Part shown: positions 21,906 to 64,000 of the stretch, piece after piece
Numbering within the stretch: the stretch's first letter is position 1
Layout of the letters: each line of letters begins with the position of its first letter
Origin: Felis catus
Lineage: Eukaryota
Length of the DNA: 64,000 nt
Reading direction: 5' to 3'
Assembly: GCF_018350175.1 (NCBI RefSeq)
Contig: NC_058368.1
Span: forward strand, 106,828,001 to 106,892,000
The notes under the pieces: generated by a model
The model's database searches: none
Seen by the model: the letters and a program-made list of their open reading frames with translations, nothing else
What the model was told of the DNA's origin: nothing
Translations under genes and position numbers: made by a program

Positions 21906-22746
21906 TCTTTCATTTAAAATAGACATGATTGCCCAAGATGATGTCCTTCTAATCTTGGCACTGGGCACCAGGGAGGAGCAAAACAGACATGGTCTCTGCT
22001 TATGTGCTAGTCCAGTGTGGCCCAGTGTGCAGTTACCCTCATGCATTTTTCTTGGTTTGTTGCACTGTTTACATATGTGTACCTAACTGTACCATTATTA
22101 AGTTAATATTTATTAAAGAGTTCATTTTAACATAAATTTCTTTTCAAATGAAATGATCTTTGCTGCAAATGGAAAATCAGTAATCTTGCCAAAATTGGAA
22201 GTTAACTTTAAGCAACATGGAAAAATATTGTTGTTCTCTGGTTAATTTAGACGTTCTCTATCCCTTCTGGGGTGAAGTGATTCCCAAAGTCTTCTATCCT
22301 CTTCCTCTACCAGTGACACAGGGACTTTCTGTCCATCTTTCTGTTTTATATGAGTGGAAGGTCTACGTTTGACATTAGATTATGGCTTATCTCTTGAAGT
22401 TAGGTAGGACAGATAGCCCCGTCCCCTCCACTAACTTCATCTTCTACATGTATCATAATTTGGGAAATTGCCTAGTCCATTCATAGATTAAAAAAAAAAT
22501 GATCTGGTATCTCTGACCTCATTAAGTGGGCCATTTTTCATGTTGTCTTTAGCTCAGAGGTAAATGTGTAGCACCAGTCTTTTCAGAAGTATGACACTTC
22601 GATGATTTCAGTAATAATGTCACAATTCTGCATGTAAAAAGAGCATGTAATAAGTGTTTTAAGATATCAGTATCCTTGGTATTAGACTTCACATTGTCTT
22701 TGCTCTCCTTTAACCCATCTGCCTTGATCACTCTTATATATTATAG

Positions 22747-22900
22747 GTGCTGCTATTTCAAGACCAAAATTATGGTCTTCACTATGAATATACTATCCCG
22801 TCGGACCCTCTTCCAGAGAATCAGAGCTCAAAAGCACCCGAACCCCTTTTTATGTGGACGCACACAGGCTGGGAAGATTGTGATGCCACGTGTGGAGGAG
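22747..22900 (+). CDS. ADAMTS19: ADAMTS19 internal exon (end of spacer, start of TSP1 repeat), 154 nt, phase 0-1
   Basis: ttatag|GTGCTG...GGAGGAG|gtgaag; VLLFQDQNYGLHYEYTIPSDPLPENQSSKAPEPLFMWTHTGWEDCDATCGG(G); matches ORF-track 22747..22950 up to the donor. Confidence 0.95.
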
Positions 22901-25164
22901 GTGAAGGATTTTCCAATATTTATCTTACCAAAACTGTAGTTGTTTTCTGATTACTCACTGAGAATTAAGACAGCTCTGCAAACCCTTCTCTGAAATTCCA
23001 AGCTCCATAAAGGAGTGGAACCTGAAAGTTTTTTGTGACCCATTTGGCCCCTAAAAGCCGAACTCTTCTGTGGCAAAATTGGACGTGATTTGAAAAAAGG
23101 CCATTTACAGTGATTCATTGCATTGCTTTGCGTAAATATTAATGCATTTGCTTGCAGGGTTGCCCTAGACCCCACACAAGCTCTTCCATCATGCCTCATG
23201 CTTTTATAGTTACTTTCTGTATTTACTTTTTAATTTTCTAGAATCTTAACAGCTTCAAATTCTGGAGTACCTCTACCCACAAGAACTGTAGACCTGCAAT
23301 AAATATAAGGGTGCTGTGAAGCAGCAGCCTCAAGCTTGCTTCTTTGCTGTCTGAATACTTAGGGTGACTAGACGGAGCACATGGAGGACATCATTTCATT
23401 CCCCCACTGCTTTCTTCCGATTTTTCAAAAGTATATGTCACTATTTTCTATAAAATATGGATGTATCTCGAAACTTCACTCACAGGTTTTAAATTATTTT
23501 TTCATAGTAGAACTTAAGGAGGCAAAAGCCCAAAATTACCTCGGCCTAAAATGTGAGCCTAGCAAATCACTTAATCCTGCTAATGAGATCCTTGATTCCC
23601 AGAGATTCAACAGATTGTCACTCTCAGAGCCCGTTAGGCCAAGGCAAGATCTCCGGTCATGAGCAGCATAGTATTTCCGTTGTGCTTTGTACCTCATAAC
23701 ACATTTTCTATAGTTCTTTAGCAAGAGCTTCTTTTGAAGGCTAAAAGGAAACATTATATTCAATTATACCAAAATATAGAGAAGTGGAATATCAGTTTTG
23801 TTTTCCAGGCAAAGAAACTGTTGATATACATACCCTAAGTGTGCTGCGGCAGGAGCAGGCAAAGGTACAAACCAGACTAGCCTGTGGGGGAGAAGGTTTG
23901 GGGGAAAAGGGAAAGGAAAATATACAATACGAAGAAGTAATATATTTTCAAAATGTGAAGAATACTCTCGATGAAAATTAAGCAAGAGAGAAAAATAAAT
24001 ACGGGTTGGGAGTTGGGAGGGGGTAGGTGCAGAAAATAGTCTGAGAAGGCCCCAGTGAGGAGACCACACTGATTTAAAAATCTGTAGTGACTATGGATGG
24101 GCACAAGAGGATGTCTGGTGGGGTGTCCGGTGGGAATGGGTTCCAGGCAAAGGTTCTGAGGTGGGAGTAGAGCTGGCATGCTCCAGGAATAGCAAGAATG
24201 CTAGCATGGTTCTCCTTTACTGAGTGATGTTATGTGCCATTAGAGGATTTGAATAGAGAAGTGGCTTATTCTGGTTTATGTTTTAAAAAGGTTTTTCTAT
24301 GTCTGAGTTGAGACTAGATGGAATAAAAGAAAAGAGGAGAAGTAGATCAACCAGAAAGTTATTGCAATAATCTAAGAAAGAGATGATAATAGTTTGGCCA
24401 CAGTGGTAGCAGTAGACATAGGAGGATGTGGTCAGGTTCTGTATATTTTTTAAAGTAGAATCAATAGAATCTGTTGAAAGGCTACATGTGGAGTGTGAGA
24501 GAAAGAAAGGTGTCAAGGATGACTGTGATGGCTTTGACCAAGCAACTGGCAGGACAAAGTCACCATCAACTTACCTAGGAAAGCCTGTGCAATAGCATGA
24601 TTAAGAAAGAGTTTGATTTCTAACAGAAGTGTGAGATCCCTATGGGACATCTAAGTGTGACATCAAGTAAGATATGTAAGTTGGGTGACCGGGAGAGAAG
24701 ATCAGACTAGAGATAGAAAATATATGGTAGGTATTCTAAAATGCTGAGGCTCAAGTCAACTAAGGAGTGAGTGAAGAGAGAGAGACGCTGCTAAAGGATT
24801 GAGTCTTGGGGCACTCTACTCTTTAGACTAAGCAGCAAAGCAAGTTAAAATGAGTAACCACCATCATAGGAGAAGAAGCAGGCAGAAGAGAGTGCTTTCA
24901 GCTAAAGTTGCTTTCAGCTCTTCCTGGGGACGAAAGAAGTATTGTAACATGGCGATCTGTCCCATTAAGCAGAATATAGGTCTTCAGTTTCTTTTGGGGG
25001 TTGGCACCCTCCTTACTCAAAGCTGTTTCCCAAAGGAACATTAGAAGTCAAACGTGGAGCAGGTCAGTGGCTTCTCTCTGGTGCCCCCAAAGGAGAGGGT
25101 GCCGGGCTCAGCATGAGACATGAGGGTATACAGGAAGAACCTCTAGGGGAAGTAAGTGAGAAAG

Positions 25165-25256
25165 TGATTACTCACTGAGAATTAAGACAGCTCTGCAAAC
25201 CCTTCTCTGAAATTCCAAGCTCCATAAAGGAGTGGAACCTGAAAGTTTTTTGTGAC
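25165..25256 (+). repeat. Exact 92-bp dispersed duplication of 22948-23039
   Basis: Identical sequence tgattactcactgagaattaag...gaaagttttttgtgac at both sites; the copy is flanked by gtaagtgagaa(a/g)gtg direct repeats. Confidence 0.97.
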
Positions 25257-25355
25257 ACAAAAAAAAATGTAAGTGAGAAGGTGTTATAAGAGGGATAGAA
25301 TGATCAACTCTATCAAAAACTAACAGGTCAAAAATACTGTAGACTGAAAGTTGAC

Positions 25356-25468
25356 TATTATATTCAAATATATTTATTATATTTTCAGATGTATTTATTT
25401 TAAATATATTTATTATTATATTTTCAAATATATTTATTTGATTTAAATATATTTATTATATTTGAAAT
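25356..25468. repeat. AT-rich minisatellite (aaatatatttatt units)
   Basis: Four copies of aaatatatttatt plus a degenerate copy. Confidence 0.85.
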
Positions 25469-28400
25469 GTAGAGTCCAATGATGATCCTGACAAAAATAA
25501 TTTTAATGAAGTAGTTGAGTCAAAAGATTAAATAGAGTGGATTCAAAAGAAAATAATCATGGTGTGAACTGGAGAAAAGACTCAAAGTAACTCAGGAAAT
25601 CTTGCTGAAAGAAGAAAACAAAAATGTGGCAATAGCTGGAGGGGAATATGAGTCAAAGAGTTTGTTGTTGTTTTTAATAAGGGAGCCTATATATGATTGT
25701 TTGCCAATGTGCATTTTCTAGAATAGGACAAAAAACTAGTGATGCAAAGGAGAGAGCAAAAAAAAAATTGCTGTTGTGATATCCTTGAGTAGGCAAGATT
25801 GGATAGAGGGAGTAGTTGACTACCTAGAAATATGGACAGCACATCCCTCATAACAGGAGAAAGGACAGTATCTGAGCAGCAACAGGTTTCACGAACTTAT
25901 CCTTAAAGAGCATCTTGCTGAGCATGAAGGTGGAACAGAAGACATTAGAATTTTGAAGAGTGATGTGAATGGTCACTTAAGACAATGAGAGAATGAATGA
26001 ATTGGGTCCGTGTATTTTGATTTTTCAATAGCTTTCATGGTTCACTTGAAGTTAATGGTCATGAATTTAGTTTGACTCCAGTCATCATAATAATATGTTG
26101 CCCTCCAGCTGTGTACAGCATTTGGATACACTTGTGAGTGAGTTTGGAAATTGCCAGGTGAGTATAATAAAATGAGAGAACATGGTCCCAAGGTTGAATG
26201 CAAGGAGTTGAAAATGGTTGACCGTGGAATTTAGTTGTATAAGGAACAAGGTCAAGGTATGAGGGGATTGAAAGACAGTAGAAAGGTGGTAGGACTGACA
26301 GACGCCATAGCTCAGTGGGGATAAAGAACTTTTAGACTTGGGGTACTCAAGGAGAAGGAATGGAAGTACAGGAGATGGTGACAGAAAATAGAGGTTAGGT
26401 TACGGAGGGGTTATAGTTTTGGTAATAACAAAATGAGGAAAATTGGTGGCTTGAGTAAAGTGAAAGGCAAGATCTCTGGGTAGGGATCCATTCAAATGAA
26501 TACTGTAAACACAAAAATAGTGCCAGGGGCAGTGTTAGCAAATATCACAATCACCTAGAAGATAAAATCTTAGAGAGAGGGAGTGACCTAGGAGTTGATG
26601 CAGCAGCAAGGAAAATGTGTCACAGAGTCTGATCCAAAGGTGTAGGTTTAAAAAGAAGAAAAGGAAGATGGTCTGGTCATAGCAGTGAAGAGCTTGGACA
26701 GCCATGCCACCTCTCCATCCAAAGGTGTGGGACCTAAGTAAGAAAATGGTCACCCCGCTGGAAGTACAACAAACAGTACCCTCAGGAGAGAGGGGGAAAA
26801 GGTGGCAAGAACATGTAGAGGTACAGAGGATAGGGAAGAGGATTCCTGCCAGAAAGCTCAGAGCCTTTGGGTTCCCAGCCAACTGCTAGTACACCTGGCC
26901 CTCTCAGGTAGCCAGAGCAAAGGCAACATGGGGGACAAGAGAAGGAGAAGACACAGGACATACTTTGCTCCTGAGGATATAGAGTAATTACAGGGAAAGG
27001 ATGTCAAATTTCTCTAGCAATTATAAAAAATGCTACCAGTCATCCTTGCCACAGTGAAGTTTTTATTGACCATGTTTCTCCAGGGACCCCATTATCGCCA
27101 AGTGACTTGGGATCCTCTGCCCCCCGTCTTCTCTTGCTAGTGGTCCCATAAACACGCAAAGTCCTGTTCCTCTGTTCCACCCATTCTTTAGTGATGCCAG
27201 GGCCCATTACAATTAGGGGGTTCTGCTTTATATCGTCTATCCAAATAAAAACCAGAAGCAAAATTAGAAACAAATACATTTGAAATGAAAATCTGTACAA
27301 TTCGAATTTTCTCTTTAATACAACTCACATAAAAGGAAGACCCGCCCCCATCCAATGGTGAGCTGCAGGGCAGTAGAGTGATGACAGGGTTGATAGTTCT
27401 TGTTAGACCCCTGAAAGGCATTCATTAAAATCTGTTTGTATTTGAAACTCTAAACAGAAAAATGTTTGCCCAGTAAATTTCATTTTCCTCATTTTTTTTC
27501 TTTCTTCTGCAATTGCAGTCAAAAAGGAGCTACATTAGAAGTAAACATACAGAATTTGTCAATCCTCATTTTGAATAAACAAATTTATGGGGGAGGGGTG
27601 GTTAAATTTTTTTTCCCCAAAATCACATTCATTACAATCTAGATTGTGTTTTGCCAATTGCCAAACCTTAAGGAATAGAGATTTGCTACGTCTAGATATT
27701 CTTAAACATAACTTCTTAATTATCAATATGAGAAAATTTAAATGTGTAGAGATTAAGGGACTTCCCAAGGCCACATGCCCTGTGGGAGTAGAGTTCAAGT
27801 TAGAATCCAGGACTCCTAAACTCAAATCTTCTCTCTTCCTCACATCATATTTTCTTCAAGAGCAGCTCAAAAGGCTTAATGTCATTTCTTTTCACAAAAT
27901 AGGTCAGGTCCCTTAGAGATCATATAAGTTTTGTTTTGATTCAAAGAGATGTTTTACTGAATCTGTTCAATGAGAAATTAGATATGTTTTTGTTTTTATT
28001 TTGTAAAATAAGTCCTAATTATACCCAGTCTTTATATGATTTGCGCTCGCACAGACCTTCTCTCTCAAATCTGTTCCACTGTGTTCATTCAACAGTTTTC
28101 AATTATCTCTATGTTAATAGGGTACATATTACTTTCAATGCCAAGATATTTCTGGGCTTTTGGTATTATTTTCCTTTGCAGTTCATAAATAAAGTGGATG
28201 GACAGGATTTCAGGAATCGTATCTTTTCGAACTTCGTATTGTCCATTTTATAGCCAGAAAGAGCTCTGTAATCTTTCAGCGTATTCATGAATTAAAGGAG
28301 AGTCAGTTCAAAGCACAGAACATTGGAAACAGATTCATGCAAAATTTATCTTCAACAGCAAAGGCGAATAATAGCACTATTTTACTTCACAGGACTATAT

Positions 28401-35894: not shown

Positions 35895-36111
35895 GGGGCG
35901 CCTGGGTGGCGCAGTCGGTTAAGCGTCCGACTTCAGCCAGGTCACGATCTCGCGGCCCGTGAGTTCGAGCCCCGCGTCGGGCTCTGGGCTGATGGCTCAG
36001 AGCCTGGAGCCTGTTTCCGATTCTGTGTCTCCCTCTCTCTCTGCCCCTCCCCCGTTCATGCTCTGTCTCTCTCTGTCCCAAAAATAAAAATAAACGTTGA
36101 AAAAAAAAATT
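35895..36111 (+). mobile_element. Young feline Can-SINE
   Basis: CpG-rich; perfect TSD aaagatagaaagatta (35879, 36112). Confidence 0.97.
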
Positions 36112-54241: not shown

Positions 54242-54460
54242 GGGGCGCCTGGGTGGCGCAGTCGGTTGGGCGTCCGACTTCAGCCAGGTCACGATCTCGC
54301 GGTCCGGGAGTTCGAGCCCCGCGTCGGGCTCTGAGCTGATGGCTCAGAGCCTGGAGCCTGTTTCCGATTCTGTGTCTCCCTCTCTCTCTGCCCCTCCCCC
54401 GTTCATGCTCTGTCTCTCTCTGTCCAAAAAATAAATAAACGTTGAAAAAAAAATTTTTTA
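54242..54460 (+). mobile_element. Young feline Can-SINE inserted in an old L1 3' fragment (~54100-54720)
   Basis: CpG-rich; TSD aaatatatgtata; upstream aagatgctcattgcagcc...tggaaacaaccc is an L1 3' motif. Confidence 0.95.
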
Positions 54461-63345: not shown

Positions 63346-64000
63346 AGTAACAATGTTATTTGGAATTTTTGCTTTCATAGTAATTTAGACCCAAAAGTGT
63401 AGTTATGATCTATGGCAATGCCTTGCTTAACAAAAAGGAAAAATAAGTTCCAGGTAAATTAGTTGTAAGAGACAGTATTGGAGCCCATTTTCCTCATATC
63501 AAGGCCAGAATATTTGGCTTTTTCTTTTAATGTCTGTCTGTCTTTAATCGCAGTGACATGATTTGGGGAAATATCCAGTTGTTTAGTAGTATCTTCTATA
63601 ATAAAGTAAGAACTAATTTAGAAGACCTTGGGATTTCACTTGTTTCAAGTATCTGTTCATATTTCACATATATGCAATGAAATTTTTACCCAAATGTATT
63701 TTATAAAGAAAATAATTAATAGTAATAGTCTGATATTTTTCATTGCCTGAGTGTGCTAATTAAAATTAGATCCTGAGGCTATTAGACTATTTAATTTCGT
63801 GAGAAAGCTTATTCTGTTAGTTTCAAAGGCAGAAATGATGGTGTTTTAGTTAAACGAATTATAGAACTTCCATTATTTCCTGGATACAATTTTCATTTTC
63901 AGGTTATTCCCAGACAGTTACAAAACTTAACTTGCATAAGGAATGCAACTAACATGTTTTCCTCTTGTTTTCAAAATTTTATGAGAGGCACTGTTCAGCC

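Follow-up and report, generated by a model that had tools for sequence, protein, structure and literature searches.

A multi-template insertion in an ADAMTS-family intron of Felis catus with probable look-alikes of a target-site duplication and an A-tail

Complex germline insertions drawn from multiple templates (MMB-TI) numbered 33 in one person and 26 in another, with up to five templates and some inverted steps (PMC8421209). Insertions of the TSIP type have been divided into class 1, with a target-site duplication (TSD), 10-40 A's, AATAAA and a TTTT/A site, and class 2, which comprises repair patches without these features (PMC5110952). Snap-back and loop-out synthesis are described as generating new microhomology (PMC5728401, PMC7165422), and the templated tracts of polymerase theta typically measure 3-30 bp (PMC7165422). 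Complex insertions that include templated genomic DNA also arise from L1 activity (PMC11702581), and the hallmarks of target-primed reverse transcription are given in PMC13174262, the available part of which holds nothing on local copies. A literature search, with most subscription journals outside its reach, returned no report of an ADAMTS19 insertion in Felis.

The locus described here lies in a window of 64,000 nucleotides (the whole stretch of DNA analysed), within an intron of an ADAMTS-family gene that we take to be ADAMTS19. A coding exon at 22747-22900 (+ strand), with AG before and GT after it, sets the direction of transcription. It holds a single open frame of 51 codons and ends at a splice donor at 22900 (AGG before and GTGAAG after the boundary). 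The atlas neighbours of this exon were chordate ADAMTS_spacer1 / TSP1_ADAMTS fragments (best score 0.90, with PF05986 on 10% of members), and it reads as an ADAMTS spacer/TSP1 border; a Pfam search of the exon gave 0 matches and a PDB search nothing below E 1.6. As claimed in the preliminary description, a source tract (donor 2, 22948-23039, + strand) begins 48 nt into the following intron, and positions 25165-25256 are identical to it on the same strand, over 92 nt and at a spacing of 2217 nt. The match lengthens to 95 nt with one mismatch, at 25257. Donor 2 is intact and runs on into its own right flank in the contigs of three sequencing runs (X1, X5 and X15).

In a direct-repeat search, this pair was the longest among 250 maximal exact direct repeats of at least 20 nt in the window; among the 40 repeats listed, the other 39 were microsatellites or SINE-like copies, the latter presumably SINEs. 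The second-longest exact repeat (91 nt, 35988-36078 and 54335-54425) lies between two SINE-like copies, presumably young and ordinary SINEs. Searched against the window with blastn, the 92-mer returned the two copies and one 18-nt chance match. The alternative of a repeat family was rejected, given a contig depth of about twice that of the flank and no other fitting contig among 32 of 58 pieces.

Sequencing data were considered at two levels. Fourteen DNA-like runs from one organism and 9 studies contained 0.98 of the words of 22500-26000, and an equal share of the sampled words (2%) was missing from each of these 14 best DNA runs. Since 23010-25256 was matched in X1 and X5, the missing words lie outside that stretch, perhaps at the right junction or in an AT-rich array next to the insert. 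The uniform share could also have meant that every run is without the insert, as the junction words make up 2.2-2.4% of the query, which the contigs of X1 and X5 refuted for these two runs. Four of 24 runs, chosen as the best holders, were aligned over 23060-25355 (X1, X5, X15 and X18; X1 may be the source).

The left junction of the copy was present in contigs of three of the four runs, which answers the earlier concern about an assembly artefact: the copy is not one. All three contigs (X1 record 7, X5 record 30 and X15 record 15) stop at 25194, 30 letters on the insert side under a bridging rule of 31 letters; a graph of 31-letter words would be expected to leave just this overlap on entering a two-copy repeat. 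In X1 a contig spans precisely 25165-25256 at a depth of 57 (flank 27.7), as does one in X5 at 54.6 (flank 29.8), and these depths, a hint rather than a copy number, fit two copies on both chromosomes. Since this contig stops at 25256 in both runs, the second copy parts from the source at 25257. In X15, which shows the left junction only, the 92 nt pass into the source flank without a break. X18 covers no junction; its use as an outgroup was discarded, with neither junction covered and with 4 other letters in 408 nt of flank that, at a depth of 2-3.6, are possibly errors. No other letter was found over 23060-25256 in the intron contigs of X1 and X5. One X15 contig carries T>C at 23348 at half depth, probably a heterozygous intron variant.

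No empty allele was listed in the four runs, though 25257-25355, which includes the right junction, was covered in none of them, so that filtering could have removed an empty allele, and the length of the A-run, the lone T and the A/G mismatch are read from the assembly only. The listing filter removes contig records, and a coverage hole proves nothing; in 7 of 8 cells checked, the listed records accounted for the whole bin depth. On these observations, the insertion is real and probably common or fixed. The earlier view of a recent and possibly polymorphic insertion found no support: 0 differences in 92 nt bound the divergence only at 3.2% (95%), the junction was present in all three runs with cover, and by depth X1 and X5 seem to carry two copies on each of the two chromosomes.

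A second and longer copied piece, absent from the preliminary description, lies to the left. Positions 24900-25152 (+ strand, 253 nt) have a GC content of 49%, compared with 40% and 35% in the outer flanks, and match another locus (donor 1). Depth rose over this stretch in all four runs, and other contigs share it, joining at 24900 with a different upstream flank and leaving after 25152. Of the foreign flank, two X5 contigs carry 23 nt as a loose end before 24900, and X15 record 14 carries 63 letters that do not align. At the other end, X5 record 30 opens at 25123 and shares 30 letters up to 25152, the base beyond which X18 record 23 ceases to fit. Relatives with the other flank were present in all four runs, with 1-4 other letters relative to the window. 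A nearer form differs at 24976, and in X5 also at 24933 and one unlisted place, while a farther form differs at 24953, 24980, 24999 and one unlisted place. The window and the nearer form are separated by 1 listed difference in X1 and 3 in X5. Because the relatives share their flank and differ more from one another than the window does from the nearer one, the copy in the window appears to be the derived one.

The two forms show at least 5 differences in their first 130 nt and seem alike over 25000-25152. Both occur in X1, X5 and X18, and just one in X15. In X18 they reach a depth of 6-12, compared with 2-3.6 on the intron, which could reflect expression or more copies. At 24976 the window has the A of the farther form, which hints that copying took place before a change in the nearer form. 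As to whether the relatives are alleles or paralogues, X1 record 7 has a depth of 45.6, with 48.3 expected for two copies in all, whereas other contig records suggest three. No second copy of 24900-25152 was found within the window, and a 21-nt pattern from donor 1 had no match in viral contigs or JGI metagenomes. An Rfam search returned 2 chance rows (E 0.3 and 0.91), neither within donor 1, Pfam gave no match for one frame of 47 aa or for three read-through frames, and six-frame translation of donor 1 yielded no long frame.

Both ends of the donor-1 copy carry junction marks. At the outer left junction, an 11-nt direct repeat, TGCTTTCAGCT, stands at 24893-24903 and 24909-24919 (+ strand), with 7 letters coming from the flank (a 7+4-nt repeat), and this repeat reads as the mark of priming, slipping back and re-priming. 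At 63691 random positions, such a recurrence of a flank end (at least 7 nt, in the first 40 nt of donor 1) was seen 185 times. At the other end, the last base of the copy (25152) is the first base of the left 15-mer of the apparent TSD. A chance meeting within 1 nt of 25152 is expected at about 1 in 700, even if only the 2.1 kb separating donor 2 from the insert are considered. As 24900-25152 is itself copied and ends on the first base of this 15-mer, the event probably comprised about 365 nt and not the indel of about 117 bp that had been predicted. The outer junctions of this ~365-nt block show no duplication.

The two 15-mers themselves (25152-25166 and 25269-25283) were confirmed and differ at one position, with A or G at 25163/25280. 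The left one (+ strand), present in the left-junction contigs of X1, X5 and X15, repeats 14 nt of the right flank with one mismatch; the G at its start is common to donor 1 and the TG at its end to donor 2. Thus 1 nt is shared at the junction from donor 1 to the flank copy and TG (25165-66), the 2-nt overlap noted before, at that from the flank copy to donor 2; microhomologies of 1-2 nt at such switches are within chance expectation. A pair of 15-mers with at most one mismatch surrounded a random 102-nt segment at 13 of 9072 positions. The pair at this locus flanks the 92-nt piece, the left 15-mer abutting the donor-1 copy.

The filler between the 92-nt copy and the right 15-mer reads ac, nine A's and t, as had been described, and it contains an inverted copy that the preliminary description did not mention. 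The first eight letters, ACAAAAAA (25257-25264, + strand, read from the assembly only), are the complement of source positions 23036-23029 and are templated by the opposite strand of the T6-GTG end of donor 2 (23029-23037, - strand). Together with the end of the copied tract they form a 9-bp palindrome around 25255, TTTTTTGTG-A-CACAAAAAA. Since the start of the tail is the exact reverse complement of the end of the tract, it points to a strand switch on DNA and not to polyadenylation. The strand-switch register at donor 2 pairs 4 of 6 bases. A switch to the other strand of donor 2 fits the geometry, unlike an intramolecular snap-back directly from the ...GTGAC end, which was ruled out by its 1-nt loop. 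A plain A-tail would produce a perfect stem of at least 9 bp at 317 of 63800 positions, and two random letters followed by A9 a mixed stem at 202 of 255200; like the other chance figures for the junctions, these are post hoc, as the tests were picked after the pattern had been seen. Folding of the hairpin was modest, with a z of -1.75 and 8 of 200 shuffles as good. The remaining A's of the A9 and the lone T (AAAT, 25265-25268, + strand) are probably original target sequence, and a native AAAT would explain both the A-run length of nine and the lone T.

Two readings had been offered for the copy, a DNA-templated repair patch and a retro-inserted RNA of the gene itself, marked by TSD and A-tail, and of these the former fits best and the latter poorly. 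Of the 12 filler letters, eight repeat the end of the copied tract in reverse complement, the A-run is just 9 long, and the left copy of the supposed TSD starts exactly at the end of another copied piece. AATAAA and ATTAAA are absent from 22948-23060, where, among 12 hexamers that we take to be poly(A) signals, only the variant CATAAA was found, at 23006. Target-primed reverse transcription copies the tail first, so that the tail must already be on the RNA. By our reasoning, one sense RNA cannot give both the forward 92 nt and the inverted end. An opened DNA duplex can supply both.

The target is an old, purine-rich multi-copy repeat, presumably L2. Its left part (24300-24899, - strand) is 64% purine on the + strand with a GC content of 40%, and its right part (25269-25355, - strand), which opens with the right 15-mer, is 66% purine on the + strand. 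Short matches from many unrelated contigs fell on 24351-24386 and 24487-24524. By eye, the - strand of both flanks shows words like those of a reverse transcriptase and, as a lead only, the flanks may be consecutive parts of a non-LTR reverse transcriptase once 24900-~25264 is left out, following the motif order that we assume for such enzymes. In tests of this lead, none of 7 Pfam queries was matched, nhmmer gave self-matches of the repeat and no other copy, and phmmer against 1.84 billion proteins gave one repetitive, unrelated and hence spurious match. The empty site would lie between ...GCTTTC and GTAAGTGAG. With the block 24900-~25264 removed and the A's native, it could read TTTC/AAAA, close to the L1 cut motif, while the TT/AAAA endonuclease motif is absent at 25152 (GGAA/GTAA).

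Within the same old repeat, a degenerate AT-rich tandem array with periods of 19 and 39 and internal palindromes occupies 25356-25468, 90 nt to the right of the insert, and is a possible fragile spot. Both 15-mers open with GTAAGT in the sense of the gene (after GAA at 25149-25157 and after AAT at 25266-25274), a word that occurs 15 times in the window. As the left 15-mer opens with it, the event added a possible cryptic splice donor; no spliced joints were listed in two RNA-library runs, which look like genomic DNA.

From the observed pieces, donors and four junction signatures we infer a single event, its order and its enzyme, as well as the sequence of the empty site and the native AAAT. 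We consider it moderately probable that this was one germline multi-template switching event of the MMBIR/FoSTeS/alt-EJ type, in which an aborted copy of the right flank mimics a TSD. A single repair event would have placed approximately 365 nt (24900 to ~25264) into the old intronic repeat, with the polymerase switching repeatedly between DNA templates and polymerase-theta-like end joining possibly completing the repair. Five short-homology switches would lead from the left flank to the distant donor, the right flank, the local intron, its opposite strand and the right flank again. The broken left end may have primed on the distant sequence at the 7-nt match, slipped back and copied 253 nt. 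The strand would then have joined the right flank, copied 14 nt with one error (or with one later change) and released, leaving the apparent TSD. A switch at TG to the same intron, 2.2 kb upstream, would have added the 92 nt, and a jump to the opposite strand of donor 2 the 8 nt of ACAAAAAA, whose A's would finally have met the AAAT of the right flank, closing the break. The reverse order is equally possible, running from right to left with an A-run at the break picking donor 2 via its T6. The ages of both copies are compatible, with 1-3 differences in 253 nt for donor 1 and 0 in 92 nt for donor 2. Against this account, no empty allele was seen, the palindrome-bearing right junction was covered in none of the four runs, and a 15-20-nt duplication beside an A-run is the usual L1 pattern.

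This last pattern would be accounted for by a complex event started by L1 ORF2p, which we regard as unlikely. It would follow the same template path, on DNA or on DNA and RNA, with a true staggered TSD. A nick at the TTTC/AAAA-like site would free a T-rich end that primes on the A6 of the other strand of donor 2; after the strand switch and the copying of 92 nt, closure would occur at TG on a 15-20-nt target overhang, and synthesis would run on into the distant template instead of sealing. The length of the duplication, the A-run on its inner side and the 2-nt overlap at the 5' junction agree with such a course, and PMC11702581 reports insertions induced by L1 that involve templated genomic DNA and local rearrangements. 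However, the block is by eye without L1 or SINE sequence and without a true poly(A), its extra piece lies outside the left duplicate and not between the duplicates, and a cut motif requires four or more of the A's to be native. In a specific form that we hold to be quite unlikely, ORF2p cut within the actively transcribed gene and copied first the host intron in cis and afterwards a distant template, the product containing no L1 RNA; the templates would be nascent RNA, both opened DNA strands or all of these, the TSD real and the tail self-templated.

Two independent insertions, which appear very unlikely, would separate the donor-1 copy, placed earlier or later, from a 117-nt piece with a genuine 15-bp duplication at its edge. 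Each part can indeed be described alone, and donor 1 shows 1-3 differences to its nearest relative where donor 2 shows none; yet the second insertion must land within about one base of the first junction (the ~1 in 700 given above, even locally), the divergences are compatible with one date, and both parts are joined in X1, X5 and X15. It seems highly improbable that an intron RNA was cut and A-tailed at 23042 (CA) and reverse-transcribed by the L1 machinery 2.2 kb away, a later C-to-A change at 25257 having created the palindrome. Sense orientation, the 95-nt match with one mismatch ending in CA, the A-run followed by a duplication, and CATAAA 31 nt before 23042 agree with this history. Such an RNA end plus A's gives 8 pairs with one mismatch at the T6, a coincidence of a kind (at least 8 pairs, one mismatch) found at 1635 of 63800 positions, and one perfecting change would be needed besides, together with a landing in cis; the donor-1 boundary is left unexplained, AATAAA and ATTAAA are lacking in 22948-23060, and class 1 insertions have 10-40 A's (PMC5110952). 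Hardly credible is a real copy whose right-junction letters are partly assembly errors, which would make the tail, the palindrome and the mismatch uninterpretable. The stretch without contigs in the four runs and the 2% of words missed by the 14 top DNA runs would suit it, but 25256 is the last base of the 92-nt contig in both X1 and X5, the intron contigs of the two runs agree with the window from 23060 up to that base, and the hole itself is no proof.

The favoured reading, one template-switching event, places the scar close to MMB-TI, with which it shares several templates, steps in both forward and inverted orientation, switches at short microhomology or microhomeology, and the nature of a germline variant without gross rearrangement (PMC8421209). 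Unlike the human MMB-TI of that source, the felid case has a distant 253-nt template and a TSD-like re-copy of the right flank. At least two templates are still in place, donor 2 being intact in the window and the contigs and donor-1 relatives being found in four of four runs. With class 2 TSIP (Onozawa and Aplan, PMC5110952) it has in common a patch from an intact distant donor, junction microhomology, a size within the experimental range of 73-414 bp and the lack of a true poly(A) signal. The authors of class 2, however, favour RNA templates and, in the available part of their paper, describe no TSD-like repeat; beyond that class, the felid scar has a local donor, a step in inverted orientation and a re-copied piece of flank, and polymorphism is not part of the likeness.

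Aborted flank copies, direct and inverted junction repeats and microhomology in the last round recall SD-MMEJ and polymerase theta (PMC5728401, PMC7165422). Their tracts, of 3-30 bp and beside the break, compare with steps of 4, 8 and 14 nt at this locus, unlike the 92 and 253 nt taken from 2.2 kb away and from another locus. These longer tracts argue against polymerase theta alone and need a more processive step. Class 1 TSIP and L1 retrocopies resemble the scar in the duplication of about 15 nt, the 3' A-run and the 2-nt 5' overlap (PMC5110952, PMC11702581, PMC13174262). They are unlike it in that the felid A-run is short and largely templated, no cut motif stands at the left duplicate, the donor is in cis and a second piece lies outside the duplication; an untemplated poly(A) of 10-40 nt and an AATAAA 10-30 nt upstream of the tail were both absent.

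The scar is a real, well-preserved multi-template insertion of an already known class, and its TSD and A-tail are probably look-alikes; the preliminary description had the right place and too small a unit. With no sign of function, it is a non-coding scar in an old repeat and of little biological weight, its class being counted at dozens per human genome. Its value is that of a worked example of how template switching can imitate a TSD plus A-tract, through an aborted flank copy and an inverted copy of a T-run, which matters wherever retro-insertions are called from those marks. Should the ORF2p reading be true, the locus would be a natural example of the L1 enzyme copying in cis without an element, and in its in-cis form a germline record of local copying driven by a retrotransposon enzyme with no element left. 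If fixed in a lineage, the insertion would serve as a homoplasy-free phylogenetic marker.
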